From positions 3,648,001 to 3,712,000 of the forward strand of contig OZ244048.1 in assembly GCA_965215265.1 (NCBI GenBank): 64,000 nt of DNA, given 5' to 3'. Each line of letters opens with the position of its first letter. Position 1 is the stretch's first letter. This document shows, piece after piece, positions 3,965 to 60,687 of this stretch. The notes beneath the pieces are model-generated. The model did not search any database, was not told the origin of the DNA, and saw nothing but the letters and a program-made list of their open reading frames with translations. This stretch comes from Candidatus Poribacteria bacterium. Lineage in GTDB: Bacteria; Poribacteria; WGA-4E; WGA-3G. A program made the position numbers and the translations under genes.

Positions 3965-3968
3965 AAAC

Positions 3969-5342: not shown

Positions 5343-5350
5343 GAAACAAC

Positions 5351-6604
5351 ATGGTTAATAAATTTCTGCTTGTCTCTATTGATTGCTGGCGGTTTGACGC
5401 ACTCAGCTGCACCAATCCACGTTTCAATACCCCAAAATTTGACCTGCTCACTCAGGAATTCTCCCTCGCTGAGAGGTTTTTCGTCACTGCACCAGCAACC
5501 CGGCCCTCGCATACGTCATACTTTACAGGACTTTATCCGTTTGAACATGGGGTTTACGGGCAGACCTACCTCAAAATGTTTCAAGGTATACCCCATCTAT
5601 TTCAACTCTTTAAAGATGCAGGCTATCACATCACCGGCAGATCGGAGCGCCCGGAGGTATTTCGCTTTCTCGATTTTGAGCCGTTTATTACTGCACTAGA
5701 CCCGCGTGCCAAAGCACAACATCTCGGTGCACTTGAAGACCTTCTTGAGCACCTCGTGCAGCCCTCAGATACACCACAATTCTGTTTCCTTCATTTTTGG
5801 TATACGCACGGCGGATACGGCATGTCAGGTATACCGAATGCCCCAAATTTTAAATCACTCGTGGAGAGTAGGAGAACAGATGAGGCATTGCGTTTTTATT
5901 ACGCCGCTGTGACACATATACTTGAATTTAAACTGGTTGAAATTCTGAAACACCTTTCGCTTTCTGAATGGGCGATCTTTATCTTCGGCGACCACGGCGA
6001 AGGGATTTGTGAGGAAATTATCGCACATGGAGACACCCTCAATCAGAACGTGCTGCATGTACCGCTTTTAGTGCATATCCCCAACTATGAAGTGTTGGAA
6101 TTTCCTAACGCTCCACTATCTTCATTGGACCTGTTCCCGACACTCACGAACCTCGCCGGTATTGACGTAGATTATAAAGGATATGGACACAATCTACTAA
6201 ACCCATCGGAAATTGATAACCGAGCATTGGTTTTGTCAGAGTTGGATAGTCTGTACGGCATCGGTTTCCTCAGTCGGAGTAACTTAGAAATGCCACATAA
6301 CCGCGTGACCTCCCGTACATCGGTCGATAACATAGAAATCAATAGATACTCAGAAGGAGTCCGACTCTGGTCACTTACGGATGGCGATCATCTCTATCGG
6401 GAAGACGAACAAACCGGCGAATTTGTGTATAGAAAGGTAAAGAGCGGAGAAGATATCGTGTGCGGAGATCCGCAGCGATTTCGTGAGGCTTATGACGATA
6501 TTTTGATGAATTCCAACTATCAGCACCTTCAGGCTCAAGAAACGACCTCAGAAGAGACCCAAATATTGGAAGGAAGACTAAGGGATTTAGGGTACGTTGA
6601 GTAG
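5351..6604 (+). CDS. Sulfatase-like alkaline-phosphatase-superfamily hydrolase/transferase with Thr at the nucleophile position
   Basis: SIDCWRFD, ATRPSHTSYFTGLYP, GDHGE, LHVPLL and C-terminal RLRDLGY motifs. Confidence 0.8.
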   Translation: MVNKFLLVSIDCWRFDALSCTNPRFNTPKFDLLTQEFSLAERFFVTAPATRPSHTSYFTGLYPFEHGVYGQTYLKMFQGIPHLFQLFKDAGYHITGRSERPEVFRFLDFEPFITALDPRAKAQHLGALEDLLEHLVQPSDTPQFCFLHFWYTHGGYGMSGIPNAPNFKSLVESRRTDEALRFYYAAVTHILEFKLVEILKHLSLSEWAIFIFGDHGEGICEEIIAHGDTLNQNVLHVPLLVHIPNYEVLEFPNAPLSSLDLFPTLTNLAGIDVDYKGYGHNLLNPSEIDNRALVLSELDSLYGIGFLSRSNLEMPHNRVTSRTSVDNIEINRYSEGVRLWSLTDGDHLYREDEQTGEFVYRKVKSGEDIVCGDPQRFREAYDDILMNSNYQHLQAQETTSEETQILEGRLRDLGYVE

Positions 6605-43154: not shown

Positions 43155-44147
43155 TTAAGGAACCTTAATTTTCGCGAAGACTTGCTCAATGATTTCTTCT
43201 ACCTCTAACCCTTCTGCCTCCGCTTCGTAACTAATAATAACCCGATGTCTGAGTACATCCATACCGACAGCGTGGATATCTTCCGGGGTGACATAGCCAC
43301 GTTCAGAGAGAAACGCCTTCGCACGCGCTGCAAGTGCGAGGAAAATAGTAGCACGAGGCGATGCCCCGTATTCAATCAGTGCGCTCAATGCATCTAACTG
43401 ATATGCCTCTGGCGCTCGCGTCGCACAAATCAGATCTACGATATAGTTTTCCAATTGTTCCGCCATATAGATGTTACGCACTATCTCACGGAAGCGGATA
43501 ATATCTTCTGGGGAAATCACCCGCTGAATCTCCGGAATCTCTTCGGTTGTCATCCTTCTGAGAATTTCCAACTCTTCTGAATGTGAGGGATAGTGAACCT
43601 TAACTTTTAGCATAAATCTATCCATCTGTGCTTCTGGGAGTGGATAGGTGCCTTCTTGTTCGATCGGATTTTGGGTTGCTAAAACAAGAAACGGGTCGTC
43701 GAGCGGATAGGTAGTACCGCCAATCGTTACCTGTCGTTCCTGCATCGCTTCAAGCAGCGCGCTTTGCACTTTGGCAGGTGCCCGGTTTATTTCATCGGCG
43801 AGGATGACGTTAGCGAAAATAGGTCCCTTTTTAGTGTAAAAATCGCCTTGCCGCTGGTCATAAATGAGGGTACCGATCAGGTCTGCTGGCAGTAAATCCG
43901 GTGTGAATTGAATCCGATTGAAATTGGCATCAATTGTACGTGCTAACGCACTGACTGCTGTCGTCTTTGCAAGTCCTGGCACCCCTTCAAGTAGGATGTG
44001 CCCGTTGCAAAGCAACCCAATAATCAAGCCTTCAAGCAGCGCCCGTTGCCCAACAATAACTTTTCCTGTCTCTGTTAAGATTTGCTGTATGAGTCCACTG
44101 TCCTCTGTGATTCGAGCGTTCATCGCATCTAAATCGTATTGTTGCAT
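43155..44147 (-). CDS. MoxR family AAA+ ATPase
   Basis: EGVPGLAKT, RIQFTPDLLPAD, DEINRAPAKVQSALLEAM, NPIEQEGTYPLPEAQ, GASPRA. Confidence 0.95.
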   Translation of the reverse strand: MQQYDLDAMNARITEDSGLIQQILTETGKVIVGQRALLEGLIIGLLCNGHILLEGVPGLAKTTAVSALARTIDANFNRIQFTPDLLPADLIGTLIYDQRQGDFYTKKGPIFANVILADEINRAPAKVQSALLEAMQERQVTIGGTTYPLDDPFLVLATQNPIEQEGTYPLPEAQMDRFMLKVKVHYPSHSEELEILRRMTTEEIPEIQRVISPEDIIRFREIVRNIYMAEQLENYIVDLICATRAPEAYQLDALSALIEYGASPRATIFLALAARAKAFLSERGYVTPEDIHAVGMDVLRHRVIISYEAEAEGLEVEEIIEQVFAKIKVP

Positions 44148-44159
44148 GTCTGGGTTCTT

Positions 44160-45512
44160 CTATGAAAAAAACGCCCGCGTTTCGCCTTCTTGAAATGACT
44201 GCTCAAGCCACGGATCTTCTGTTTTGACGCGAAAATGGATGAGTTTCTCGCGCATCGCCTTGACTTTTTCTTGTAGTTCCGGCGCGTTAATAAGGTTTCG
44301 CGATTCGGCCGGATCGTTTTGCATATCAAAAAGTGCCTCCCGATCCTGTTGAAGAAAATTCGCGCGCGGTCGTTGACCCAATTGCTGCACGTTGTCGTCT
44401 CTGACCGCTGTCCATGAAATGGAACGAAATAGGTCACTGGGCAGTGGTGTTTCTAGTTGATACGCCAGATTACGGACATATTTATACCGCCGTCCACGCA
44501 GCACTCGATACGGATAATAGTTTGTCACCTCATGGAAACAGTGGGAAAAGTAGGTTTCTTCCCACTCACCGGTCCCAGGGTGTGGACTGTCATCTTCAAG
44601 GATTGAGAGAAGGGAACGGCCGGGGAGTGCATGTAGACCATCAGGGTGTTCAACACCACACCAGTCGAGCATTGTCGGACAGAAATCGACCCAATTAACT
44701 AACGCTTGGTTCCTGAGTCCACGTTGCTGTTGAGAAGGACTCGCGATGATTAGGGGACAGTGATGCCCGCTGTCAAAACTTGAGGCTTTTGCACCCGGAA
44801 AAGGCATCGCGTGATCGGTTGTGACAAAGACAAGCGTTTCGTCAGCGCGACCGGAGGCATGTAGCGTGTCCAGAACCGAGCCGACAACCGCGTCCCAGCG
44901 TGAGATGCTTTCATAGTAGTCCGCTAGATCTTCGCGCACGGCAGGCACATCTGGTAGGAAGTTCGGGACAATCACCTCATCAGGGGCATAAGACATCGGC
45001 ACGATTCCAGGATGCTCCCGGTCGTTTCCGAAACCTTTACCGGCGCGATGCGGATAGGTGCTGCCGATATGCAGGTAGAAAGGCTTATCTGCGTTTTCGT
45101 TAAGGAATTGGTTAACCTTCGCTGCCATATCCACGGGGCTCCTGGGATTAACCTGCGGTTCAAAATCAAAAGGATACACACTGGCGGGCTCCACATGTTT
45201 CTTGCCGATACACGCTGTCGCGAACCCTCGCGATTTCAGAATCTTTGGAACGGATTGCATGTGTTCGTGCGTCCGGAATCCGTGGATACCGTGGCAGTGT
45301 CCGTATTGTCCATGCGTATGGCTATGTTGCCCGGTGAGGATGCAAGCCCGACTCACCGCGCACGACGGACTTGTGCAGAATGCATAATCAAAGACGACAC
45401 TGCGTCCGGCAAATGCATCGATGGATGGCGTTCGGATAACCTCATTTCCGTAGCACTTCGCGATACGGCTCCAGTCATCCGCGATAACAAACATAATGCT
45501 TTTATAACTCAT
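44160..45512 (-). CDS. Cys-type sulfatase (N-sulfoglucosamine sulfohydrolase-like)
   Basis: IADD, SPSCAVSRACILTG (FGly motif variant), GKKH, DHAMPFPGAK. Confidence 0.92.
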   Translation of the reverse strand: MSYKSIMFVIADDWSRIAKCYGNEVIRTPSIDAFAGRSVVFDYAFCTSPSCAVSRACILTGQHSHTHGQYGHCHGIHGFRTHEHMQSVPKILKSRGFATACIGKKHVEPASVYPFDFEPQVNPRSPVDMAAKVNQFLNENADKPFYLHIGSTYPHRAGKGFGNDREHPGIVPMSYAPDEVIVPNFLPDVPAVREDLADYYESISRWDAVVGSVLDTLHASGRADETLVFVTTDHAMPFPGAKASSFDSGHHCPLIIASPSQQQRGLRNQALVNWVDFCPTMLDWCGVEHPDGLHALPGRSLLSILEDDSPHPGTGEWEETYFSHCFHEVTNYYPYRVLRGRRYKYVRNLAYQLETPLPSDLFRSISWTAVRDDNVQQLGQRPRANFLQQDREALFDMQNDPAESRNLINAPELQEKVKAMREKLIHFRVKTEDPWLEQSFQEGETRAFFS

Positions 45513-46174
45513 AATTTTCCTTGGGCGTATTGCACTTTATTTAGGATAAAATTGACGACTTCATCAACTGTTTTATGCGTTGTATCCACTACAATTGCAT
45601 CTTTGGCAGCTCGCAGAGGGCTATGTTCCCGCGAAATATCCTTCTCGTCGCGTGTGCGAATTGCTGCCTCTACGTCTGTGAGTGTAGTTTGCACGTGCTG
45701 TTTGTGGAATTCTGCAAGTCTTCGTCTTGCCCGTTCGGTAACGGAGGCATCTAGGTAGAATTTGAAGTCGGCGTTTGGGAAAACGATTGTTGTCAAATCC
45801 CGCCCTTCGGCAACGATGCTCCCTTCAGTCCCGATGCGTTGTTGGTGTTTAACAATTTCACGCCGTATTTCAGCGACTTTTGCAACATCAGCAACGAGTT
45901 TGTTAACTTCGGGTGTCCGGATTTGGGTAGAGACATCTTCGCCATCCAATAAAACCACTTTTCCGTTATCAGTGAATTCGATATAACACCGCTTTACAGT
46001 GTCAGTAAGTTGTGGTGAACCTGCAGGGTATTGATGCCGGATAGCAAGCACAGTGACAGCTCGGTACATTGCACCGGAATCGAGATAAAGGAAACCGAGT
46101 TTTTCCGCAACGCGTCGAGCAACCGTGCTTTTGCCAGAGCCGGCGGGGCCATCCATCGCAATCGTCGTATGCAT
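45509..46174 (-). CDS. cmk: Cytidylate kinase
   Basis: IAMDGPAGSGKST, YLDSGAMYR, VAEGRD, RDEKDISREHSPL. Confidence 0.95.
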   Translation of the reverse strand: MHTTIAMDGPAGSGKSTVARRVAEKLGFLYLDSGAMYRAVTVLAIRHQYPAGSPQLTDTVKRCYIEFTDNGKVVLLDGEDVSTQIRTPEVNKLVADVAKVAEIRREIVKHQQRIGTEGSIVAEGRDLTTIVFPNADFKFYLDASVTERARRRLAEFHKQHVQTTLTDVEAAIRTRDEKDISREHSPLRAAKDAIVVDTTHKTVDEVVNFILNKVQYAQGKL

Positions 46175-46299
46175 TATGCTGTAGTCCTTTTCATTTCCGA
46201 AAGTGATAAATTGGGTGAATCGAGGTAGAATGCACGATGGCATCCTGCCTATATGGATGCTGCCGTGCTAATCTCGTCAGTAACATTCTTTCCTATACA

Positions 46300-47193
46300 T
46301 TATAAGGGATCCCTAGACTTTTTTGCCGCCATGAGTACGCGCTCAATCTCAGCAGTGTTTTTGGTTTGGAGCAAGTCTTTAAATTCCATTAAATTATCAA
46401 CGATGTTATCAATCAATAACGAGAGCACCTCTCTGTTTTGCGCGAAGATCTGCGTCCACATCTCTGGAGAGCCTGCGGCGATACGGGTCGTATCCCGAAA
46501 GCCGGTCGCAGTGAAATCTAATGCTTTTCCGGCATCAGTTTCCAGGCCGGCCACGCTATTTGTCAGCACGCTGGCGATGAGATGGGGCAGGTGGCTTGCA
46601 GCCCCAATTAGCAAATCGTGCACTTCAGGCGAAAGGATATGCGGCACTGCACCTGTGAACTGCCATAGATTTTCAAGGAGCCTCAGCGCATGCGGAGGTG
46701 TATCTTCTGTCGGTGTGAGGATACACTTAGCATTTTCAAAGAGGTTGGCACGTGCAGCATTCACACCTGTTTCGTGTGAACCTGCCATCGGATGCCCACC
46801 CACAAAGATTATAGGATGTCCTTTTTGACGGCACAAACGTGCTTCAACGGCTTTAACCATTTCTGCTTTCGTGCTACCCACGTCAGTAATGACAATAGAA
46901 CGTTGCCGTGTCGCAGCAGTAGATTCGGCGATCCGTTGTACGAGCACCGGCACCTGTTCAACAGGTGTGCCGATGACCACGAGTTCGGCATTTCCAAGCC
47001 CTTCTTCAAAATGCGTTGTTATTGAATCGACTGCTCCTCGCTCGAGTGCTCGTTTGAGCGTGGAAAGCCGCCTACCAAGCCCAACGCGCTTCCCAGGAAA
47101 GCCGTTTGCTTGCAATGCAAGCCCAAGCGAACCTCCGATTAAGCCTACGCCCCATATTGTTATTTGATGAATCTGCAGTAGATTTGTAAACAT
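46300..47193 (-). CDS. tyrA: Prephenate/arogenate dehydrogenase
   Basis: GVGLIGGS, TDVGSTK, GGHPMAGS, SHLPH, GFRDTTRIA. Confidence 0.93.
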   Translation of the reverse strand: MFTNLLQIHQITIWGVGLIGGSLGLALQANGFPGKRVGLGRRLSTLKRALERGAVDSITTHFEEGLGNAELVVIGTPVEQVPVLVQRIAESTAATRQRSIVITDVGSTKAEMVKAVEARLCRQKGHPIIFVGGHPMAGSHETGVNAARANLFENAKCILTPTEDTPPHALRLLENLWQFTGAVPHILSPEVHDLLIGAASHLPHLIASVLTNSVAGLETDAGKALDFTATGFRDTTRIAAGSPEMWTQIFAQNREVLSLLIDNIVDNLMEFKDLLQTKNTAEIERVLMAAKKSRDPL

Positions 47194-47254
47194 ATTGTCC
47201 GCAGGTCAAGTGGATAGCGTTTCTAAAGTTTACCAAGTGAGTGTATTTCAAAAT

Positions 47255-47283
47255 ATTTTAATGCAATTTATGCTTTTTGTCAA
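47255..47283 (-). promoter_or_regulatory. Sigma70-type promoter of tyrA
   Basis: TTGACA-17 bp-TAAAAT on minus strand. Confidence 0.7.
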
Positions 47284-47638
47284 GTGATAAACGTGAAATA
47301 ACGTTGGGCTATTTGGTTTTATAAGTGTGTTAAAATGTCTAAAGTTAAGTGGGTTTCTGAGGAAGGGGCTGTGTATGAGTTGGCTGCAATAGGGAATTGC
47401 ATTTACAAGGAATATCTGTTCGTCGAGTTCTGGGGATAAGAAATGTCTAGCGCGACGAACGGCACAGTGGAAAGATAAAAACGATAACAGATTTCCGGAA
47501 ACCTATCTAAAGTTGAATAAAGTCTTTTTAAAGATACCTTAAATTGTAATGCATGTTAAGTTGTTTTGCAAAGATGAGGTGGTTTGGTTTACAAACCGGA
47601 TACGAGATGGGTTTTGTAAAAAGCCAGCTGTCCTGCTA

Positions 47639-50245
47639 TTACATTTGGGCTGCATTTTCTAACGCATCCTCAAGCGACTGCCGAAATTCGTTTTCATCTG
47701 CGTTGTTGTAGAACGGTACGCCGATTAAGCGATAATTTCTATCCTCTGTCAGGATTCTATTACTAAATTTCGCTCTGATTTCTTCCAAGAAGTCGGCTTT
47801 CCATTTGTCATGTGATTGCAAAAATGCCCCTTTCGGTTCGATGAAAAGTTGATAACTCAGCAGTGTATCGCTTTTGTTAGCATCATTTCCGGATTTTAAA
47901 CCGTTTTTCTCACGTAAGAACAAGACAAAGTCGGGTTGGAAAGTTTGCCCATCTGGAAAATTATGGATAGCAAAATGCCCTTCGTTGCGGAGCAGATAAA
48001 TATCCTCGTATCTTTCCTCTAATTGTGGGATGAGTCGATCTAACATCCGCACGAACGCCTTTTCTACACTGCTGCCGTAGAGGGTATTGAAGGCAAACCA
48101 GTCTCTGACGGAGACGAAGTGCTTGAACTGTACGTCCTCGTCGGCATTCGGGTTGTTAGGGTTGAATTTCAGACGCTTATCCGTGAAAATTGCCCGGACA
48201 GGTTGCTCCCCAAACGCTGTTGTGCCCTCGTATTCTGTGATTTGCTTTTGGATTTCTGCCTCAATTTGCTGCATCAGCCCACAACATGCTGCGAATTGTT
48301 CGTGACGATTTGATTCCAATGCATCGATATCGCCTTCAAAGGTGATTTCTAGGCTCCCTAAGTAGTGCTCTGATGTCATGAATTCGCGCATGGATGTTAG
48401 TTGTGGAAAATAGCGTTTGAGCGAGGCGAACGTGAAAAACGGATTCCTAGCAATCGCGGATTGAACGACGTTGCGTTCAATATCAGTTACCTTCATATCC
48501 CGTCGGTTCTCATTGTACACCACCGGTGTCATCCCGTTTTCCAATATGGTGGTCGTCCCGCCGGATCCGGTCGCCACGTTATGAACGTAGTTTTGTTTCT
48601 GCACACCTAAGTCCTCAAAAGATTGGATATGCCGGTGATCCTTCGGGACGCGTTTGTTGAGCCAGACGACACCGTATTTGTAAAAGTCGGTCTGCTTAAA
48701 CTGCTTTTTTAATTTGAGTTTTCGGGTTACAGTCCTCTCGTCTAACATGCCTTGTTCGACTAAGGCAGTGCGGATTTCAGAGATATAGCGCGAGTCGTTG
48801 ATACTGTGGTAGTGTAGTTCTTCCAAGACACGTAGTTCATTATCAAGGTCCCCGTCGAATTTACGTCGGAACCGGTCGGGTTGTTCTGGTAGGATAAACG
48901 GAAAATAACGTGCCCCACGTCCGATGAGCTGCGCCTCGGATGTCGTCGTTGAACCGATTTTACCTCGTCCGGAATCCCGTGTCTCATAACAACGGACAAT
49001 GTCAAATAGGTTCAGAACGTCCCAGCCTTCGTTGAGCTTCTGCACCGCAAAGATCGCCCGGATCGGATTGCTCGGCTCTTCAAGCGTATTCACCTGGATC
49101 TGATAGTTCTTTTTCTCCTTCTCATCATTGACTGAAAGACAGTGTGCTTCTTGAAATTCTTGTTTCAGACGTTGTGCTAACTGTTCCTCGGTGATATTAT
49201 TTTCAGCGAAGAATCGGAGTGCTTGTTCAACAATAGGAATGTTTGATCCACGGATACCGCAGATCTCTTGTGCCGTGAGACCGTCAATCAATTGATGAAA
49301 AGTCGCTTTGTTCTCTTGCGACTGTGCAATTGTGCGCTGTGCCTTGAACAGAATCACCGGTTTGAAGTTAATCCCGTAAGCTGCCGCCACCTCCTGTTTA
49401 TATTGGCTGAGAATGAGAGCCTGCAAGATGCGTTGGTTCAATTCAAAATCGGATTGAACAATTACCACGTCTTTTGAGAACCGATCGTTTCGGAAATTCA
49501 CCAAATCGTAGCGGGTAATAACCTTATTCCGATATTTCTCCACCATTGCTGACGTTTCGTAATCGTGCGTGGCGGTGAATTCCAACAGCAAATTATCTCT
49601 ATTGGAATTAAAGATTCGCTCCACCGTGCTTTCCCAATTGTCAAATAGCTCCTGCTGTGTCTTGGTCTTAACGTTCATATGATGTGCTTCATCCGCCAAG
49701 AGTACGATCCGTTTCTCTGCGAAATCCTCGTAGGTCAGTTTATTCTCCTTCTCCGTTGTCATATCGCCGTGGAGCTGCTGGATGGTTGTGAAGCAGATAT
49801 TGATCTCGTTTTCATTGACACCTTCAAAATTATCTACCTGTGTCACGGCAACGCGTCGTCCCGCAAAATAGATATTTTCGCTGAAAAGATATTTAGAGGA
49901 GAGCGGGTTGAGGAAGTTGTCCTTCGTCTTCTCAATGATATTGGTGGAATTGACGAAAAATAGGAAATTACGGTACCCTTTTTCATAGAGATAGAGGATT
50001 AGCCCTGCCATGATGAGCGTCTTACCACTGCCGGTCGCCATGTTGAACAGCAGGTGCAGCGGGTTCTCCTTGCCTGGGAAATCGGTATTGAGGCAGTGAA
50101 TAAACCTTGCAAACGCTTCTTCCTGATAGGGACGGAGTTCAAACACCGGATTCAGATTTTGCATGATGCTCTCCGGCATTTCCGGTTTGAGACCTCCGTA
50201 GTTGAATGTAATATCAAGTTTTTCATGAAGGAATTGGTTAGGCAT
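47639..50245 (-). CDS. res: Type III restriction enzyme Res subunit (SF2 helicase plus PD-(D/E)xK nuclease)
   Basis: LRPYQ, MATGSGKT, DEAHH, EFTAT, LNEGWDVLNLFDI, QLIGRGAR, FQPDF...IEPKG; ATG overlaps the last mod stop (ATGCCTAA). Confidence 0.93.
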   Translation of the reverse strand: MPNQFLHEKLDITFNYGGLKPEMPESIMQNLNPVFELRPYQEEAFARFIHCLNTDFPGKENPLHLLFNMATGSGKTLIMAGLILYLYEKGYRNFLFFVNSTNIIEKTKDNFLNPLSSKYLFSENIYFAGRRVAVTQVDNFEGVNENEINICFTTIQQLHGDMTTEKENKLTYEDFAEKRIVLLADEAHHMNVKTKTQQELFDNWESTVERIFNSNRDNLLLEFTATHDYETSAMVEKYRNKVITRYDLVNFRNDRFSKDVVIVQSDFELNQRILQALILSQYKQEVAAAYGINFKPVILFKAQRTIAQSQENKATFHQLIDGLTAQEICGIRGSNIPIVEQALRFFAENNITEEQLAQRLKQEFQEAHCLSVNDEKEKKNYQIQVNTLEEPSNPIRAIFAVQKLNEGWDVLNLFDIVRCYETRDSGRGKIGSTTTSEAQLIGRGARYFPFILPEQPDRFRRKFDGDLDNELRVLEELHYHSINDSRYISEIRTALVEQGMLDERTVTRKLKLKKQFKQTDFYKYGVVWLNKRVPKDHRHIQSFEDLGVQKQNYVHNVATGSGGTTTILENGMTPVVYNENRRDMKVTDIERNVVQSAIARNPFFTFASLKRYFPQLTSMREFMTSEHYLGSLEITFEGDIDALESNRHEQFAACCGLMQQIEAEIQKQITEYEGTTAFGEQPVRAIFTDKRLKFNPNNPNADEDVQFKHFVSVRDWFAFNTLYGSSVEKAFVRMLDRLIPQLEERYEDIYLLRNEGHFAIHNFPDGQTFQPDFVLFLREKNGLKSGNDANKSDTLLSYQLFIEPKGAFLQSHDKWKADFLEEIRAKFSNRILTEDRNYRLIGVPFYNNADENEFRQSLEDALENAAQM

Positions 50246-52201
50246 CGTTATCTGCTCCATAAAATTCTCGGTTGAGTCCTTTATCTGTCTCACTAACCTC
50301 AAAATCCGCGTCGTCTATTTCGGAGAGGTTGAGATAGAGTTGATTCTTGTCCAGCAACGCCGCCAAGAGTTGCTGCTGCTTGTCCACATTATTGATGGCG
50401 ATGAAATCTCGCACTGCGGCTTCAGGCATTTGCGGATTGACATACCAATTCAAGAATGAGTTTTCGGCGATGTTTCGCCAGAGTTTGACAAGTTCTTCAG
50501 CGGATTGTGCCGCTTGAATCTGTTCCATAAACGCCTCGTTGTATGGCATTAACTCACACGAGAGGAAAGATGCTGGTGTTAACCCCTCCTGAGCCATCAC
50601 TTTCTCAATCCGCTCCTTGCAAACAGTGACATGTTCCTCTAATTGTTCAACAAGGATAAATTGCCGCTCTACCCCCCCCCTTCAGATTTGTTAAGTTCAA
50701 GCACGGCATGCCCTGTTGTGCCTGATCCGGCGAAAAAGTCTAAAACAATATCATTACTGCCGCGCTGGGTGATAATATCAATTGCATCTTTTACAGTGTG
50801 AATGGATTTAGGATAACTGAAGACTTTTTTGCCATCAAACATTCCTTTCAGTAGGATTGTCCCGTGTGCAGACGCATCATATTTTGAGTCAGTCCATATT
50901 GTTTTAGTTTTCCTGCCTTCTCGAATTCTATCCTTTATATACAGCGTCCATTTGCCCCTAGATTTCTTGCAGACTATTTCCCCTTTTGCCACAAGTTTCA
51001 GGAAAGAAGGCTTTGTTTGTCGCCATACTCGTTCTTTCCCAAGCGAATCTAATGGCAGAATTTTGACAAATCCTTCTTTTTCTTCCAACGAAAATTCATT
51101 TTCGCTTTCATTATAGTAAATCGGATAGAAAGAATTTGGTCTCTCTTCAGGAGTTGAATAGCCTCCACCTCTCCTAAAGGGCGAAAGGCGGTACCTGCTT
51201 ATCTCATCCTGATGGTTGAAATCAAGTTCTTGTTGTTCTGTCAATTTTATAAGGTTTGTTGATACGTTATCAATGGCCTTGGCGTAAAATAGTGCGTATT
51301 CGTGACAGGTTGCAAAGTGAGTGTTCGTTGTGCGACCACCTGGCTTACTTTGAATGACGATAGTCCCGATATGATTTTCTCTGCCAAAAGTGTCATCGCA
51401 GAGTAGTTTGAGATGTGCGTATTCATAATCATCTATGGTAGCGACTAGAACGCCTTTTTCTGATAGCAAGTCTTTTGAAATATCTAGCCGGTTCTTCATA
51501 AACGTCAACCAACTTGAATGATTGAAAGAATTGTTGTATCCAAAAATATTAGCATCCCCTTTCGTGTTATACGGTGGATCTATGTAAATCAACTTTATCT
51601 TCCCTCGGAACTGTTGTTTGAGGGAGTGAAGTGCAATCAGATTATTGCCCTTGATGATAAGGTTTTCTCGGATTATACCCTCTTCATCGCGTTTGATAGC
51701 GGACACCGGTTGTGTGCCGGCAGCCGTGTGGCGTTTCCAATTCGTTAGCACCTTCGCATCTAAGAGGCGGTTGATTTCATCGTCGGCAAGGATTTCATTG
51801 AAGAAAAGCTCCTGTCGTTTTTCCTCCTCGTGCGTCTGTCCCCCCTCCAAGACGCAATCCTTATAGGGCCATGCGAGTGCGACTTCGCCGCGTTCTCGTA
51901 GGAACTTGTCATCAACGGTTAATCCGATTCTGTTGCGGAATCTGGTGTAGGAGTCGCCAAAGAAGTTTTTGTCAGAGATGTAGGTAATGAAGGTGTTGTA
52001 ATTGAAAACATACCGCCCGTTGATGTCGTCAAAAAATTTTTCCGCTATCTCCTTATCTGTCATCAACAGAGCAATCAAGCCGTGGTCGAGTTGCCAGGCG
52101 CGGTTTCTGACGGCGGCGGGGATGAGTTCTTCGGCATCGTCAACAAAACGCCGGTCGGTTTTGAGGAGGTTAATCAGTTTTTGGTTGAAGTTTGATGGCA
52201 T
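50238..52201 (-). CDS. mod: Type III Mod methyltransferase copy C, frameshifted at G9 (654 aa if G10)
   Basis: IYIDPPY, DFFAGSGTT; GAA-G9-TAG stop; the shifted frame continues VERQFILVEQLEEH into ORF 50238-50600. Confidence 0.92.
50672..50680 (-). repeat. G9 homopolymer tract in mod C (candidate phase-variation switch, OFF)
   Basis: C9 on + strand; G10 or G7 restores the frame. Confidence 0.85.
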
Positions 52202-52221
52202 AGTCGTCTCTTTTTTGTCGG

Positions 52222-54159
52222 TTATGTATAAAATTTCTGGTTCAGTGCCTTATCTTCGTCGCTGACACCAAAATCCGCGTCGTCTATTTCGGAGAGGTTG
52301 ACATAGAGTTGATTCTTATCCAGCAATGCCGCCAAGAGTTGCTGCTGCTTGTCCACATCATTGATGGCGATAAAATCTCGCACTGCGGCTTCAGGCATTT
52401 GCGGATTGACATACCAATTCAAGAATGAGTTTTCGGCGATGTTTTGCCAGAGTGTGACAAGTTCTTCAGAGGATTGTGCACTTTGGATTTTGTTCATATA
52501 GGCTTGGTTGTATGGCATCAGTTCACAATAGATGAAGTTACCACCGCCTTGCCATTTGATGGATTTGGAGATACCCCCTTGTTCTCCGGCAATGACTTTT
52601 TTTAAGCGGGTGAGCGTCACCGTTTCGACATAATTCATTTGTTCAATACCGATGTACTGTCTACCCATTTTGTGTGCGACAGATGCAGTTGTGCCACTAC
52701 CTAAGTGAAAATCCAGCACGATGCTTCCTTCATCGGTACCGAGTTCAATAACACGTGCAATTAGATGTTCAGATTTCGGATAGTCAAATACTTTCTGGTC
52801 GAATAATGTTTTTATGTGCTCGGTTCCTCTTTCGTTTACGAATTCTTTTTCATCCCAAATACTTCGCTGTCGTTTTGAGTTACTCCTATATTTTTGGACG
52901 ATCATATACCCTTGATCTCTTTTCGCTTTCCCTTTTATCTCCGTGTTTAAGTTCTGGCGTGCTTTTTCCTGGCTCCATCTCCAAACCGTTTGGATGCCCT
53001 GCGATTTTAATGGCATCACTTCGATAAAACCTGGTTTTTCTTTCAAGGAAACTTCCAGCAAGCCATTGGCATCCATATTGGTTGGATTGATATAAAAAGG
53101 GTAACAGAGGTTTGGACGATTTTTAGCGTTAAATCGAACATTGCGATTTCTGAGCTCCATTAAGTTAAAACCGCCGAGTGTATCTTCATAGTCAAACGTT
53201 TTATCGTTTTCTTCTAATTGCTTCAGTTCGATTTGTTTGTTTTTTGAATAGATCAAAAGGTATTCGTGAGTCCTCGCAATACCACCGTAATCTCTACCAC
53301 TTCTATTTATTACAACGATAGAATTTGAGATAAAATTTCGGCTACCAAAAATCTCATCCATCAAAACTTTCAGATATGCTTGTTCGTTATCATCACACTG
53401 AACAAAAATTACTCCATCATTTCGCAATAATTTGATCGCTACTTCCAACCGATTTCTCATAAATGTGAGCCAACTGGAATGATTGAAACTATCATTATAA
53501 CCAAACGAATCATTTCCGGTGTTGTACGGCGGATCTATGTAAATTAATTTCACCTTGCCCCGGAATTGCTGTTTCAAACTATACAGTGCTAATAGGTTGT
53601 TGCCTTTGATGATAAGGTTTTCTCGGATTGTGCCCTCTTCATCGCGTTTGATGGCGGACACCGGTTGTGTGCCGGCAGCCGTGTGGCGTTTCCAATTCGT
53701 TAGCACCTTCGCATCTAAGAGGCGGTTGATTTCATCGTCGGCAAGAATTTCATTGAAGAAAAGTTCCTGTCGTTTTTCCTCCTCGTGCGTCTGTCCTCCC
53801 TCCAAGACGCAATCCTTATAGGGCCATGCGAGTGCGACTTCGCCACGCTCGCGCAGGAATTTGTCGTCAATAGTTAATCCGATTCTGTTTCGGAATCTTG
53901 TATAGGAGTCGCCAAAGAAGTTTTTGTCGGAGATATAGGTAATGAAGGTGTTGTAATTGAAAACATACCGCCCGTTGATGTCGTCAAAAAATTTTTCCGC
54001 TATCTCCTTATCTGTCATCAACAGAGCAATCAAGCCGTGGTCGAGTTGCCAGGCGTGATTTCTGACGGCGGCGGGGATGAGTTCCTCGGCATCGTCAACA
54101 AAACGCCGGTCGGTTTTGAGGAGGGCGATGAGTTTTTGGTTGAGGTTGGCTCTACGCAT
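52222..54159 (-). CDS. mod: Type III Mod methyltransferase copy B, intact (645 aa)
   Basis: IYIDPPY, DFHLGSGTT, RQYIGIEQ, WQGGGNFIYCEL; no G tract. Confidence 0.95.
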   Translation of the reverse strand: MRRANLNQKLIALLKTDRRFVDDAEELIPAAVRNHAWQLDHGLIALLMTDKEIAEKFFDDINGRYVFNYNTFITYISDKNFFGDSYTRFRNRIGLTIDDKFLRERGEVALAWPYKDCVLEGGQTHEEEKRQELFFNEILADDEINRLLDAKVLTNWKRHTAAGTQPVSAIKRDEEGTIRENLIIKGNNLLALYSLKQQFRGKVKLIYIDPPYNTGNDSFGYNDSFNHSSWLTFMRNRLEVAIKLLRNDGVIFVQCDDNEQAYLKVLMDEIFGSRNFISNSIVVINRSGRDYGGIARTHEYLLIYSKNKQIELKQLEENDKTFDYEDTLGGFNLMELRNRNVRFNAKNRPNLCYPFYINPTNMDANGLLEVSLKEKPGFIEVMPLKSQGIQTVWRWSQEKARQNLNTEIKGKAKRDQGYMIVQKYRSNSKRQRSIWDEKEFVNERGTEHIKTLFDQKVFDYPKSEHLIARVIELGTDEGSIVLDFHLGSGTTASVAHKMGRQYIGIEQMNYVETVTLTRLKKVIAGEQGGISKSIKWQGGGNFIYCELMPYNQAYMNKIQSAQSSEELVTLWQNIAENSFLNWYVNPQMPEAAVRDFIAINDVDKQQQLLAALLDKNQLYVNLSEIDDADFGVSDEDKALNQKFYT

Positions 54160-54179
54160 AGATTTTCCTTTTTTGTCGG

Positions 54180-56083
54180 TTATGTATAAAATTTCTGGTT
54201 CAGTGCCTTATCTTCGTCGCTAACACCAAAATCCGCGTCGTCTATTTCGGAGAGGTTGAGATAGAGTTGATTCTTGTCCAGCAACGCCGCCAAGAGTTGC
54301 TGCTGTTTGTCCACATCATTGATGGCGATAAAATCTCGCACCGCGGCTTCAGGGATTTGCGGATTAACATACCAGTTCAAGAATGAGTTTTCTGCGATGT
54401 TTCGCCAGAGTGTGACAAGTTCTTCAGAGGATTGTGCCGCTTGAATCTGTTCCATGAACACTTCGTTGTATGGCATTAACTCACACGACAGGAAAGATGC
54501 TGGTGTTAACCCCTCCTGAGCCATCACTTTCTCAATTCGCTCCTTGCAAATAACGACATGTTCCTCTAATTGCTCAACGAGGATAAATTGCCGCTCTACC
54601 CCCCCCCTTCATATTTGTTAAGTTCTAAGGCAGCATGCCCCGTCGTTCCTGAACCAGCGAAGAAGTCAAGGACAATATCACCCGCATCAGTTGTGAGTTT
54701 CATGATATCTAAAACAGTATATAGAGATTTGGGGTAACTAAACGTCTGCCGCCGATCTAACATTTTTTTTAGCAAACCTGTACCATGATGGTTTGCATCG
54801 TACCGGGCATCAATCCACATGGTTGTTGCTTTATTTTTCTTTCTAACTATTTTTCTATAAATTTTGTGTTCGTTTCCCACTTTTCTCACAATAATTTTTC
54901 CAGCATTTAGTTCCTCTAAAAAGGATTCCTTAACAAGTTTCCAAGTTCTCATCCCATTCTTACCCATAGGTAAAAGTTTGACGAAATCGCTGCCGTTATC
55001 ATCTATTGTAATTTCTTGGGTTATCGGATTGTAAAAAATAGGATAATAAAGGCTAGGGCGGGTCTCCGGGGTTGCATCTTCTCTTGACCGGATAAATGAA
55101 TCCTCTTCTTCCGCTTCATTTATTTCAAAACGGAAATCCTCTTTAACTTTCGTAATGTTTTTGGCATAAAATAACGCGTACTCATGAACGGTTGAGAAAA
55201 AACTGCTTTGCGTTCTACCACGCGGATGATGTCTGATACAAACCGTGCCTATTTTATTCTGTCCACCGAAAACTTCATCCAATAGCACTCCCAGGTAAAA
55301 TAATTCTGTATCATCGATAGCTACCGCTATGATTCCATTTTCGCTTAGTAATTCCTTCGCAACCGCTAATCTGTTTTTCATAAAGGTGAGCCAAGTGGAG
55401 TGATTAAAGGCGTTGTTGTAGGTAAAACTGGCCGCAGAACCGCCTGTATTATACGGTGGATCTATGTAAATCAATTTTATCTTTCCCTGAAACTGTGGCT
55501 TCAAACTATGCAGTACCAATAGGTTATTGCCTTTGATGATAAGGTTTTCCCGGATTGTGCCCTCTTCATCGCGTTTGATGGCGGACACAGGTCCCGTCCC
55601 AGCAGCCGTGTGGCGTTTCCAATTTGTTAGCACCTTCGCATCCAAAAGACGGTTGATTTCATCGTCGGCAAGGGTTTGATTGAAAAAGAGTTCTTTTCGC
55701 TTCTCTTCTTCGTGTGTCTGTCCACCCTCCAGTATACAGTCTTTATACGGCCAAACAAGGGAGACCTCGCCACGCTCGCGCAGGAATTTGTCATCAACGG
55801 TTAATCCGATTCTGTTCCGGAATCTGGTGTAGGAGTTGCCAAAGAAGTTTTTGTCAGAGATGTAGGTAATGAAGGTGTTGTAGTTGAAAACATACCGCCC
55901 GTTGATGTCGTCAAAAAATTTTTCCGCTATTTCCTTATCTGTCATCAACAGAGCAATCAAGCCGTGGTCGAGTTGCCAGGCGTGATTTCTGACGGCGGCA
56001 GGGATGAGTTCCTCGGCATCGTCAACAAAACGCCGGTCGGTTTTGAGGAGGTTAATCAGTTTTTGGTTGAAGTTTGATGGCAT
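54180..56083 (-). CDS. mod: Type III Mod methyltransferase copy A, frameshifted at G9 (634 aa if G10)
   Basis: IYIDPPY, DFFAGSGTT; GAA-G9-TAG stop; the shifted frame continues VERQFILVEQLEEH into ORF 54180-54527. Confidence 0.92.
54599..54607 (-). repeat. G9 homopolymer tract in mod A (candidate phase-variation switch, OFF)
   Basis: C9 on + strand, same context as 50672-50680. Confidence 0.85.
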
Positions 56084-56150
56084 AATCGTCTCTTTTTTTG
56101 TTGGGTAAACGGTTGGAGTTCACCTTGCACGATGTGTTTCTATACCATTA

Positions 56151-56179
56151 AGTATACTCTAAAACAGGATTGGTGTCAA
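56151..56179 (-). promoter_or_regulatory. Sigma70-type promoter of the mod-mod-mod-res operon
   Basis: TTGACA-17 bp-TATACT on minus strand, about 67 bp before mod A. Confidence 0.75.
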
Positions 56180-56215
56180 AAATATCAGATCAGAAATGCG
56201 TTTTACTGAAAAAAT

Positions 56216-56258
56216 TGCCTTATCTGCGTCACTGATACCAAAATCCGCATCGTCTATT
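56216..56258 (-). pseudogene. 43-bp remnant of a mod gene 3' end (IDDADFGISDADKA)
   Basis: 39/43 identical to the mod B 3' end (52246-52288) by manual alignment. Confidence 0.85.
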
Positions 56259-57363
56259 GCGCCTTCCACATTTGTGCACGCTCGAGGAATACGCCACGAT
56301 CTGCCAGCCACTCTTCATAACCGATATTTCTGTTATCGGTGAGGTAGTTAATTTTCTCATCAATGCAGGCGGCCAGCTCAGCATCTTCCAAGGCAAATGA
56401 AAAGCCGCCGTGTTCTACTTCTTCATCAAGAGCGGTGACAACGAATTTGCCACCTGAAGCATGCGCTAATTCAAGGTTACCGAGCCTGCTGCGTGCGATT
56501 GCATCGATGTCACCAGCCCTGAGTGCTTCTAGCCGTTCGGATGCACTAAGGTAGATGATTTGAGGCATGTTTTCTGTTGGTGGATAGAGGCGGGTCCGTG
56601 TTACAAGATTGGGTGAAACCGCACCAGCGGTGATTTTGTACGCTGGTGTTCCGTCAGCAACGAGAGTCGCTTGCGGTGTCTCAATTCGTGTGCCCGCGGC
56701 GAGAGTACCTTCTTCATTGGCGAGCCCTGTGAGTACAAGGAGCCGGGCTTCGCTCGTAGTGCCAGGCAGCGTGGCGATGCGCATGTCTTGAGTCAAATCT
56801 GCATGGGTAGCGATGCGTTTGGCATCTTCGGCAGCTACGAGGAGCGATTGCTGGAAAGTGATATGCCCAGAGGTAAAAATGATGCGTCGTGTGCCGGTTG
56901 CATCGCGCGTCCGGGAGTCAAGGATTGTAATGCCGCCACTAATCAGGTCGTATTCGGGTTCTGTTGACTTCAGCCAGATGTCGGGCCATTCGGGGATTGC
57001 ATGGCGTGAAAACGAAAGTCCGGTTCCTTCCATTGCTTCAAGCGCGGTTAGCAGGTCTGCCTCATACCCCTGATGTGTATTGAATCCATCTGAGTTCGGG
57101 TCTGGGTCTGCACTGTAGCTTATTGGTTCAAAAAAGGGGAAGAAGCCCACATTTAGCACGCGCATGCCATCTGTGCAAGCATGCCGGGTTGTTCCATTTT
57201 CAGGCGTAACCGTCTGTTGCATTTTCTCACAAGCTGCAAAGAGGAAGAGAGTGCTCAAAAGTGCATAGAACGCGATACCTTTCGAGGCTTGGCTTCCGGC
57301 AAGATGCAAAAGGCGAAGTGCCGTGCTTCTGTTTTGTGGTAGCATGCTGAAAAATTTATACAT
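56254..57363 (-). CDS. Amino-acid-type (family 3) ABC substrate-binding lipoprotein
   Basis: Lipobox LFAAC, LNVGF..FEPISY, GYEADL, GGITILDSR, ALRAGDIDA; true start may be slightly downstream. Confidence 0.8.
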   Translation of the reverse strand: MYKFFSMLPQNRSTALRLLHLAGSQASKGIAFYALLSTLFLFAACEKMQQTVTPENGTTRHACTDGMRVLNVGFFPFFEPISYSADPDPNSDGFNTHQGYEADLLTALEAMEGTGLSFSRHAIPEWPDIWLKSTEPEYDLISGGITILDSRTRDATGTRRIIFTSGHITFQQSLLVAAEDAKRIATHADLTQDMRIATLPGTTSEARLLVLTGLANEEGTLAAGTRIETPQATLVADGTPAYKITAGAVSPNLVTRTRLYPPTENMPQIIYLSASERLEALRAGDIDAIARSRLGNLELAHASGGKFVVTALDEEVEHGGFSFALEDAELAACIDEKINYLTDNRNIGYEEWLADRGVFLERAQMWKAQ

Positions 57364-57659
57364 TATGGTAATCCTCGGGTTTGATTTGGTTTGACAATTT
57401 TGTATTTTATCTCACCGGGTTTAATGTAGCCTAATCGTTTTCGAGCGAGACGTTGTTTCGTGAGCTCATCGGTTTTTAGCAATTCAATGTGGTGCTTAAG
57501 CAGGTCGCGTTCCGCTTCAAGTTTCTTGAGTTCAGCTAAATAGGATTGCTCAGCAAGCTGAGCTGTCTGCCAATCGCGGTAGCCGTTTAAGAATTGCTTG
57601 ATACTAGCGCCTAGTAAGGCAAGAGCAATAATAAAAAAAAGGAAACGGACAATGCGCAT
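57363..57659 (-). CDS. ftsB: Septum formation initiator FtsB/DivIC family protein
   Basis: N-terminal TM helix, coiled coil, LARKRLGYIKPGE; follows eno, a conserved gene order. Confidence 0.85.
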   Translation of the reverse strand: MRIVRFLFFIIALALLGASIKQFLNGYRDWQTAQLAEQSYLAELKKLEAERDLLKHHIELLKTDELTKQRLARKRLGYIKPGEIKYKIVKPNQTRGLP

Positions 57660-57732
57660 AAAGCGCTCCTTTCAAACGTGTTTATAGAGATAGCGATGGG
57701 CGGCTTTGCTGGATTACCGCCCGGATAGCCTG

Positions 57733-59064
<1,332 letters not shown>

Positions 59065-59258
59065 TTAGAGAAATCTACGGGTTGGTTATATAACTTTTAC
59101 GAAACACTTCGAGAAACGCAGACCATTCGAGAGGTTAGTCATTTCTAAAGAATGCCGTTCATCACACGTCCCATCAACATTTATTTGGTGAAGGTACCTC
59201 CGACGAGATAATTACAAGTCGGTTCATCTGAGATTCACCGTATCGCTTTAATCAAAAA

Positions 59259-59951
59259 CTATTCCTCAATAACCACCTCAGCGAGCATATAAGCGGAGAC
59301 TAAAAAGACAAGACTGTATCCAACTAATAAATTTAGCCAAAAACTGCCTACCAAACCTCCGGTTACCAATAGTGCGACGGTGCATTTCGCACCGCCCATA
59401 ATAATCGGAATAACAAGAGGTAGTAGTATAACAGAGAGGAGGCTTTCACCGCCACTAGTAGTCGTTGACATGGCCGAAAGCAGTACGCCGACTGCACAAA
59501 AACCGAGGGTGCCGATGCTCAGTACACCCAGCAACTTTATCAGCACATTCACCGTCACCACATCTAACAGGTCTAAAAATTGGAGGGCAATCGGTGTAAT
59601 GACAAGTTCTAATAGGAATAAAAAAATGAGGTTACTGATAACTTTAGAGAGGTAGAAATTACTCGCATCGACCCCGGTCAGCCGGATACCGTGCAAAGCC
59701 CCGTTCTTCCGCTCTATTGAAAAAGACCTATTTAAGCTAATAATTCCTGCAAAAACAAATGCTGCCCAGAGAACGCTGGCGGTTAACTTGCCGCGGTCTG
59801 TTTTTTCTGGGAAAATCGGGCCAAACGCAAAAGCAAAGATAAGAACAACCAGCAAACTAAAGATAAAGATAAGAGCCAAAGTCTCTTTTGAGCGGAATTG
59901 AAGTGCCAGATCTTTGCGAATCAGCCAATTAATTTGACGGAGTGCCTTCAT
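59259..59951 (-). CDS. ccmB: Heme exporter protein B
   Basis: KDL...RSKE, LNRSF..E, LLSVILLPLVIP; six TM helices; adjacent to ccmA. Confidence 0.9.
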   Translation of the reverse strand: MKALRQINWLIRKDLALQFRSKETLALIFIFSLLVVLIFAFAFGPIFPEKTDRGKLTASVLWAAFVFAGIISLNRSFSIERKNGALHGIRLTGVDASNFYLSKVISNLIFLFLLELVITPIALQFLDLLDVVTVNVLIKLLGVLSIGTLGFCAVGVLLSAMSTTTSGGESLLSVILLPLVIPIIMGGAKCTVALLVTGGLVGSFWLNLLVGYSLVFLVSAYMLAEVVIEE

Positions 59952-59988
59952 TTGAGATTCTTAATTCTAATTTTCCTCACTGACCCCG

Positions 59989-60687
59989 CTATATCACTCG
60001 CGATTCGTACTGCTGCACTAGATTGTCTACCTCAATTTGATTTTTGCTCGCGACATTTTCAAGTTCGCCATTTATCATAAAGAGGAAACGTGTGCCGGCA
60101 ACGTATCCCAGCTCCGTATTGTGCGTGGTGATGACGATGCCTCTACCATTCTGTCTTTCTTGTTCGATACGTTGGAGGACAAACTGCTTAGCGTTCGTAT
60201 CGAGTCCCGAAAAAGGTTCATCAAATAGAAGCACTGACGGTTTATGTAGCAAGGCTTTGGCTATCATAAAGCGCTGCGTCATGCCGCGCGAGAAAATCTG
60301 GATCGGTTCATGGATAAAGCGGCTCAGCCCGACTTCAGCAAGGAGCATTGTGCAGTGCTGCTCCAGCATTTCAACTCCGTACATGCGTCCGAAAAACTGC
60401 AGATTCTGATGCGGAGTGAATTCAGGGTATGCTAGGGAGTCGTGTATGACGACGCCCAAGTGTCTGCGAATAGAAATCGTATCTACTAAGGCATCAGTGC
60501 CTTCAATTTCCAGATGTCCGGATGTTGGCTGGAGGAGCGTGGCGAGGATTTTAATCAAGGTGGTTTTGCCGGCACCGTTGGGACCGAAAATCGTCACCAC
60601 TTCGCCAGCGTCAACCGCAATGTCTACGTCTTTGACAATCGTGCGGTGTCCGAAGGTTTTTGTAATGCCGGATGCACGGAGACGCAT
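59989..60687 (-). CDS. ccmA: Heme ABC exporter ATP-binding protein
   Basis: GPNGAGKTT, FSRGMTQR, LLFDEPFSGLD. Confidence 0.85.
   Translation of the reverse strand: MRLRASGITKTFGHRTIVKDVDIAVDAGEVVTIFGPNGAGKTTLIKILATLLQPTSGHLEIEGTDALVDTISIRRHLGVVIHDSLAYPEFTPHQNLQFFGRMYGVEMLEQHCTMLLAEVGLSRFIHEPIQIFSRGMTQRFMIAKALLHKPSVLLFDEPFSGLDTNAKQFVLQRIEQERQNGRGIVITTHNTELGYVAGTRFLFMINGELENVASKNQIEVDNLVQQYESRVI

Follow-up and report, generated by a model that had tools for sequence, protein, structure and literature searches.

The stretch of DNA described here (the window, 64,000 nucleotides) comprises bases 3648001-3712000 of the single 4.83-Mb contig (48% GC) of a Candidatus Poribacteria bacterium, source genome G000. 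Its subject is a row of four genes on the minus strand, modA, modB, modC and res, for three methyltransferase (Mod) subunits and one restriction (Res) subunit of a restriction-modification (R-M) system of Type III, flanked by a gene for a solute-binding-like protein and by tyrA, as read from the open reading frame (ORF) listing and the translations. The spacers between modA and modB and between modB and modC are 20 nt long apiece, and both contain a purine-rich ribosome-binding stretch. When the frame of modC is restored, its stop overlaps the ATG of res (ATGCCTAA) and lies 8 nt into res. An earlier note on this DNA had described three mods and one res with 20-nt spacers and an overlap of modC and res, and this layout was borne out by the ORFs, the translations and the restored frame.

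All three Mods match the Pfam families N6_N4_Mtase and TypeIII_RM_meth and have the beta-class motif order, with DPPY first and D-F-x-x-GSGTT after it. Res matches ResIII (E 1.8e-34), and its translation contains GSGKT and DEAH, which we take to be the motifs of a superfamily 2 (SF2) helicase, and a C-terminal PD...EPK, presumably a PD-(D/E)xK nuclease motif. PADLOC classified ModB as MTase_III (E 5.5e-191) and Res as REase_III (E 5.3e-142, residues 13-864, full length); res is the sole full-length homologue of its family within the genome. A comparison of ModB with PDB sequences placed the Mbo45V Mod first (7dsu, E 2.7e-44), then a Mod from Helicobacter and that of EcoP15I; Res had no match there at E 0.001. 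ModB, Res and the 369-aa ORF upstream all stayed below the NCBIfam cut-offs. The ModB model from AlphaFold2 was poor (mean predicted local distance difference test, pLDDT, 55; predicted template modelling score, pTM, 0.47; 12-row alignment) and was used for Foldseek comparison only, not for domain boundaries; the top matches of this low-confidence model were the Type III Mods 6k0w, 4zcf and 7dsu, with 620 columns aligned to 4zcf_A at a template modelling (TM) score of 0.34 (Foldseek, full-length). No tRNA genes were found in 44000-60000. On the domains and motif order of the Mods, the helicase and nuclease domains of Res, and the position of mod upstream of and overlapping res, the locus is assigned as a genuine Type III R-M operon with a tandemly multiplied mod gene.

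The frames of modA and modC break at a run of nine G after motif I (G9; referred to below as a tract), and TAG comes directly after it in both genes. A tract of G10 or G7 would give a full-length frame in either gene. modB is intact: it has other sequence at the same position and no run of six or more G after motif I. The earlier note had three specificities feeding Res, which does not hold for the locus as it stands, since only modB is readable throughout in the assembly. A second tandem pair of mods lies outside the window at G000:C1:3122133-3126095, with a 599-aa ORF following it and no adjoining res, and both of these orphan mods are broken by a G9 at the same place as modA and modC. A survey of mod genes counted mononucleotide tracts of at least 9 as phase-variable, with 662 of 3805 mods qualifying, and reported G tracts in Type III mods from Helicobacter and Campylobacter (PMC5909438, in the parts available); the G9 tracts of modA, modC and both orphan mods are of that length.

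The three Mods of the array share a scaffold around divergent centres. When nucleotides are compared in 60-nt windows, identity is 0.8-1.0 along the first ~600 nt, falls to 0.22-0.68 in the centre and reaches at least 0.92 along the last ~300 nt. At the amino-acid level the copies are 91-95% identical up to DPPY and 78-91% identical over the last 100 residues, so that the 'near-identical' ends of the earlier note describe the N-terminal parts well and are slightly generous for the C-terminal ones. Its statement that the segments between DPPY and FxGSG are very different and more AT-rich agrees with pairwise identities of 35-47% and with a GC content of 38-39.5%, against 44-48% in the flanking parts. 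The orphan Mods belong to the same scaffold: identity to ModA, ModB and ModC is 80-96% in the N-terminal part and 82-94% in the last 100 residues, and across all ten pairs of the five Mods the centres are 35-59% identical. With only one full-length res of this family in the genome, five Mods on one scaffold face one Res.

The centres have their own relationships. That of modB shares 83% identity with its counterpart in a Mod from another genus (locus L016), the N-terminus of which is 66% identical, and that of modA shares 77% with its counterpart in a Mod at L033, with an N-terminus of only 39% identity. Scaffolds are much closer within the genome than across genomes. Because conservation between genera is higher in the centres than in the scaffolds, the pattern is, as far as sequence can tell, that of different target-recognition segments arising by cassette exchange on a homogenised backbone. 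Exchange of target-recognition domains (TRDs) on a homogenised backbone is known for modA alleles and for the copies of M. bovis, as described in the parts of PMC5909438 available. The positions of the genes and of the other features are compiled in Table 1.

Table 1. Coordinates of the mod array, of neighbouring features in the window and of related arrays in two other genomes (an empty cell means that no entry is given)
Feature	Position	Strand	Description
modA	54180..56083	-	Type III methyltransferase gene, frameshifted at G9: 495 aa up to the break and, in the next frame, 139 aa
modB	52222..54159	-	Intact Type III methyltransferase, 645 aa, no G run
modC	50238..52201	-	Type III methyltransferase gene, frameshifted at G9: 510-aa piece, then 144 aa
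res	47639..50245	-	Type III restriction subunit, 868 aa from ATG
modA variable central segment	54667..55462	-	DPPY to FxGSG, TRD-bearing; 39.1% GC
modB variable central segment	52713..53535	-	38.0% GC
modC variable central segment	50740..51580	-	39.5% GC
G9 run in modA	54599..54607	-	C9 on + strand; 60 nt past start of DFFAGSGTT motif
G9 run in modC	50672..50680	-	C9 on + strand; 60 nt past start of DFFAGSGTT motif
Sigma-70-like promoter match	56151..56179	-	TTGACA, 17 nt, TATACT; 11/12 matches; upstream of modA
Relic of mod 3' end	56216..56261	-	46 nt; upstream of candidate promoter; abuts stop of solute-binding-like gene
Solute-binding-like protein (SBP-like) gene	56254-57363		Upstream neighbour of array
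tyrA	46300-47193		Neighbour on res side
G001 array	L014, G001:C1:465798-481395, and L034		mods, res remnant, res and fifth mod with G10
G004 L023, ORFs of note	3715-6561 and 12265-12630		948-aa ORF; HicA-toxin-like ORF between two mods

Tracts of this kind are concentrated in R-M genes throughout the genome. There are 100 G/C runs of at least 8 (44 of 8, 46 of 9, 4 of 10 and 6 of 11), against 66 of 7. Thirty-three of the 100 lie within 1.2 kb of 42 N6_N4-methylase-like loci, which together take up 3.1% of the genome; such a run is present at 24 of these 42 loci. An ORF is broken by at least 80 aa at 36 of the runs (examples are G000:C1:434253, 224762, 17857 and 69544), and 33 of these 36 lie in methylase or R-M fusion genes; the gene class was assigned by similarity to 12 representatives, all Pfam-scanned (11 and modA). 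The classes among the 33 are N6_N4, Eco57I-like (Type IIG) and MmeI-like genes and the four Type III mods. The other three comprise one run in comEC and two in ORFs without a class. Nearly all ORF-breaking runs need a length of 10 (or 7) for frame. The comEC break is caused by a C8 run at G000:C1:3229028, and the gene for this competence channel encodes 726 aa as assembled and 863 aa with one more base.

Adjacent methylase pairs of other families were observed at G000:C1:224062-226524, 1195687-1198168, 3023062-3026204 and 1291140-1294168. Each copy in these pairs has its own G/C run of 8-9, so that tandem methylases with individual switches would seem to be usual in this genome.

A broken frame at a homopolymer raises the question of whether the tract was read correctly. 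If G9 were an under-called G10, all three mods would be intact and co-expressed, and the locus would be a constitutive three-specificity system. One additional base opens a long ORF at 22 of the 46 G/C runs of 9, two additional bases or one fewer do so at 12 of the 44 runs of 8, and at none of the four runs of 10 is an ORF gained, as would be expected had true runs of 10 been called as 8 or 9. The sister genome G001, which has at this site a G10 that needs G11, points the same way. In G002, where 16 runs were read out of 20 regions, an added base lengthens the ORF in 8 and a removed base in 3, but neither change helps in 5 of the 16 and most gains are small, so these runs do not settle error against biology.

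Set against this, none of 110 A/T runs of 9 and none of the 66 G/C runs of 7 breaks an ORF, and a G8 in rpoC is in frame, which indicates that runs of 7 to 9 are rendered reliably in the assembly. The confinement of breaks to R-M genes (33 of 36) is likewise unlike the effect of error alone, with the qualification that long runs themselves may be confined there. The tract was also followed in four public sequencing runs, by way of contigs, which drop rare variants and limit the counts of tract lengths to that extent. Lengths of 8 and 9 are present among the contigs, one with the tract one base shorter was found in 4 of 4 sequencing runs, and none in any of the four has an added base. X1 and X2, two sequencing runs of a separate study in which one loose end shows an Illumina-type adapter, gave contigs with the tract at 9 without a gap and at 8. 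On balance, under-calling is judged a poor explanation of the broken frames.

The sequence downstream of the tract bears on whether the broken genes are still used. Apart from the tract, both frames are open in modA, modC and the two orphan mods, and a second lesion was found in none of the four. In the post-tract frame, the ratio of nonsynonymous to synonymous substitution (dN/dS) is 0.10-0.18 in six of six pairs of the broken mods, at dS of 0.12-0.50. The first ~45 post-tract residues differ from those of modB, and conversion from that gene cannot explain their conservation. On account of this purifying selection, the G-tract mods are probably switches rather than dead genes.

The opposite view would be that the OFF state is fixed in modA, modC and the orphan pair, all of them dead duplicates, that modB and res form an ordinary single-specificity system, and that the additional copies are at most a reservoir of TRD cassettes to recombine with. 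All four tract-bearing mods are indeed out of frame, 33 of the 35 R-M genes with tracts in this genome are OFF, and according to the available text of PMC9465063 many strains of M. agalactiae hold such mods as pseudogenes. A dN/dS of 0.10-0.18 at dS up to 0.50 is, however, unexpected for untranslated DNA, the break always falls at a hypermutable run with no lesion elsewhere, and conversion from modB is ruled out for the residues directly after the tract. Decay of the four genes is therefore regarded as unlikely, if less so than a reading error.

A third way to combine broken frames with conserved sequence is that the OFF frames are read with no change in the DNA, by slippage of RNA polymerase or a -1 ribosomal shift, the tract acting as an attenuator, not as a heritable switch, that would keep full-length ModA and ModC at a steady low level. 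It would fit the observation that nearly all R-M genes with tracts are one or two bases short, yet under purifying selection, and a frameshifted construct of the M. bovis mod1 repeat gave low, frame-dependent expression in E. coli (preprint bioRxiv 10.64898/2026.04.01.715767, as far as available). The TAG directly after the run in the G9 frame argues against such decoding. So does the nature of the tract, as A/T runs promote slippage more strongly than G/C runs do. This explanation is held to be improbable.

The array was compared with related loci in other genomes, with 21 res-centred loci considered (the G000 locus and 20 from 19 related genomes). At least three mods lie upstream of res in 3 of the 21, one in 14 and none within the stretch in 4. 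The Pfam N-domain of Type III Mods (PF12564) has at least one match in 43 of 61 genomes of the family, and two or more matches within 5 kb in five (G000, G001, G004, G058 and G063). In the sister genome G001, four intact mods (572, 643, 655 and 654 aa) are followed by res and then by a fifth mod, and the array occupies the same chromosomal site as in G000, bounded by eno-ftsB and by tyrA-cmk-sulfatase. In G004, from another genus, four mods lie upstream of res, separated by small ORFs of which one is HicA-like. The comparison of copy number and TRDs in related genomes proposed in the earlier note gave recurrent arrays. At the position of the tract one G004 mod has a G9 and the fifth G001 mod a G10 (which needs G11 or G8), and 14 other relatives' mods examined have no run; of the four upstream G001 mods, the three matched by motif scan lack it.

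Some further details of these loci were recorded. Between the third and fourth mods of G001 lies a remnant of a res C-terminus of about 50 aa. In G004 (L023, G004:C1:3874064-3889658), a 948-aa ORF with no Pfam match follows the last mod and overlaps the start of res. In many relatives, 2-6 kb separate mod from res.

That the three copies are alleles of separate strains joined by misassembly had been named as a condition under which the earlier proposal would fail. The long near-identical ends of the copies are places where assemblers err, short contigs break there and none bridges two mods, and the related strain in X1 and X2 has another junction of N-terminal part and centre (55471 to 51606). 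The genome is, on the other hand, a single 4.83-Mb contig, every junction has its own 20-nt spacer and ribosome-binding site, a second tandem mod pair lies elsewhere in the genome, and the arrays at res in G001 and G004 are longer still, the former at the same chromosomal site. Contigs from sequencing runs X3 and X5 cover all three centres and both flanks with 0-1 differences; per-contig depths in X3 are 272, 269 and 277 for the centres and 275 and 268 for the flanks, and X5 is similar, although such depths are no copy number. On the same-site G001 array, the G004 array, the five genomes of 61 with adjacent mods and the contig cover of centres and flanks, the array is to be taken as no assembly oddity, and misassembly is considered very remote.

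Two features of X1 and X2 concern the scaffold. One contig links the modA centre, by way of 16 other letters, to an N-terminal part resembling that of modC (joint 55471 to 51606), which suggests a related strain with a differently mosaic scaffold. The modB centre (bins 52517-53419) is bare of contigs, or nearly so, in these sequencing runs, whereas the modA and modC centres are covered; this may reflect a related strain without that cassette, but there is no joining contig and the gap is not used as evidence.

Taken together, the observations favour a reading, to which a probability of about 0.6 is assigned, in which the tracts are real, slippage makes them switches that are OFF in most cells, and they sit in tandem mods carrying exchanged TRDs on one scaffold. 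From the layout and the precedents we infer switching, a separate motif for each Mod and sharing of Res. The closest structural model is EcoP15I, in which the N-terminal domain and the methyltransferase (MTase) core form the Mod dimer, the TRD of one Mod reads the site while the other Mod methylates, and the C-terminal domain (CTD) of the site-reading Mod contacts Res extensively (PMC4490356, in the parts available). By analogy, the shared scaffold would consist of an N-terminal part for dimerisation and methyl transfer and of a C-terminal domain in contact with Res, and one Res may be loaded with each of the Mods. modB, being free of repeats, would be constitutively readable, and Res would always restrict with ModB specificity. 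modA and modC, with their presumably slippage-prone G tract directly after motif I, are OFF at the assembled G9 and would be ON at G10 or G7. The truncated OFF product would lack motifs II and III and the CTD contacting Res, and should neither methylate nor hold Res; a slip into frame would add ModA specificity, ModC specificity or both in the cells concerned. The orphan pair, without a res of its own, may supply the same Res in trans, and a slip to G10 or G7 there would add a further specificity. Since the N-termini are 80-96% identical, mixed Mod dimers are conceivable.

The switch may also affect res. With modC OFF, ribosomes would halt about 425 nt ahead of res, which has its own GGAG site 9 nt 5' of the ATG. 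It is possible that res would then depend on this site and that the level of Res would be lower when modC is OFF.

Several observations weigh against the favoured reading. Of the R-M genes with tracts, 33 are OFF and only two are in frame, and given this imbalance the OFF state may be fixed or decoded in another way. The ON lengths (G10 or G7) of the four G-tract mods were seen neither in the assembly nor in the contigs of the four sequencing runs, and the contig with the tract one base shorter is not assignable to modC, as four mod copies have common flanks. The last ~100 aa of the post-tract segment could stay clean through gene conversion from the intact modB. The contigs of the public sequencing runs stop in the repeats, and the order of the genes rests on the one-contig assembly and on the relatives. 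The likeness of the C-terminal domain of ModB to the CTD of EcoP15I, finally, comes from a low-TM Foldseek alignment of a predicted model.

A bolder form of the switching reading, which is put forward tentatively and is less probable than the reading itself, is a lottery at the level of the population. Five Mods would compete for one Res, four of them behind independent G-tract switches, in a genome with at least 33 R-M genes one or two bases short; lineages would express specific subsets, or slippage would provide a trickle of all, and heterodimers would add combinations.

The layout of the array is already published for mycoplasmas, and the novelty claimed in the earlier note was overstated in this respect. 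In M. bovis PG45, the locus Mbo45ORF167P (M1-M3) contains three co-localised mods, all of which have GA repeats and a central TRD that varies between conserved 5' and 3' domains, and Atack et al. suggest that each Mod methylates another sequence (PMC5909438, in the parts available). The order there is mod3-mod2-mod1-res, and as in G000 one res is accompanied by three mods with conserved ends and variable TRDs; the last mod overlaps res, and the repeat in each mod can break its frame (PMC5909438; bioRxiv 10.64898/2026.05.01.722158). The mod1 and res products form the Mod2Res1 enzyme Mbo45V, which cuts at YAATC, and a similar mod cluster in M. pulmonis is cited in the same preprint (bioRxiv 10.64898/2026.05.01.722158, in the parts available). 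In those texts only mod1 with res is characterised, and sharing of Res among Mods is a matter of inference at both loci. The loci differ in the repeats, since all three M. bovis mods carry an (AG)n repeat whereas here a G tract follows motif I in two and the third is repeat-free; in the additional res-less mod pair of the same scaffold found here; and in the organism, M. bovis being a minimal-genome pathogen and the present bacterium having a 4.8-Mb genome and a putative sponge host.

In M. agalactiae 5632, tandem Type III mods also lie upstream of one res, and frameshifts by repeat length in MAGa1570/MAGa1580 track the loss of a methylated motif; that locus has two copies, ~65% identical, with (GA)n near the 5' end, and a motif assigned for one of the two in the available parts of the account (PMC9465063). 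With three mods in the one species and two in the other, the rule in the earlier note that canonical loci have one mod per res stands as the canon and has published exceptions (PMC5909438; PMC9465063). Phase-variable G-tract mods resemble the present genes in that a G run in the ORF toggles the methylase and many TRD alleles occur on a conserved backbone; those described in the available parts of PMC5909438 are single mods at separate loci, unlike the array here. EcoP15I (Mod2Res1, PDB 4ZCF) has the same gene order and the beta-class motif order DPPY, TRD, FxGxG, but one mod and no repeat, and its sequence similarity to ModB is limited to the MTase core. Type I hsdS repertoires, for instance the hsd loci of Mycoplasma pulmonis, can offer several specificity modules to one restriction enzyme (PMC9465063, in the parts available), a parallel that the earlier note had drawn; hsdS variation arises by site-specific inversion among hsdS genes, whereas each unit here is a whole methylase gene of its own and all lie in direct orientation. 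No inverted copy or recombinase gene was found among the ORFs scanned beside the array; inverted repeats were not searched for.

What distinguishes the locus from its precedents is the phylum and lifestyle, the position of the tract after motif I, the combination of one repeat-free with two switchable copies, the res-less pair and the scale of tract-bearing R-M genes. Literature searches on phase-variable or homopolymeric switches of sponge symbionts and on restriction-modification in Poribacteria listed no account of such an array.

The region upstream of modA contains a candidate promoter and the trace of a further mod. The candidate promoter, which the earlier note had placed before the whole array, is the top match on the minus strand within 47300-56500, against a sigma-70 consensus that may not be the phylum's own, and to that extent the proposal stands; with 19 sites found against 16.1 expected, the scan overall did not outperform shuffled sequence. 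No terminator-like sites were found on the minus strand between the genes of the array. The 46-nt relic is identical to the 3' ends of modA and modB at 40-41 of 46 positions, with a local alignment score of 62-67 against a shuffle maximum of 26, and was also recovered by blastn (E 4e-12). It is read as the trace of an earlier copy, rearrangement or turnover. A mod relic 3' of res was looked for and none was found.

Multi-mod, repeat-switched Type III loci would by these results extend from minimal-genome animal pathogens to an uncultured, large-genome and putatively sponge-associated bacterium. The arrays turn over quickly, as copy numbers and cassettes differ at one site in two species of one genus. 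With one repeat-free mod beside two switchable ones, the locus offers a natural control for the sharing of Res. A genome with 33 frame-broken, tract-bearing R-M genes may suit the study of how the cost of defence is spread in a host-restricted population. Were the lottery true, the specificities in use would vary from one cell lineage in the sponge to the next, each having its own small subset or, through slippage, a trickle of every one.

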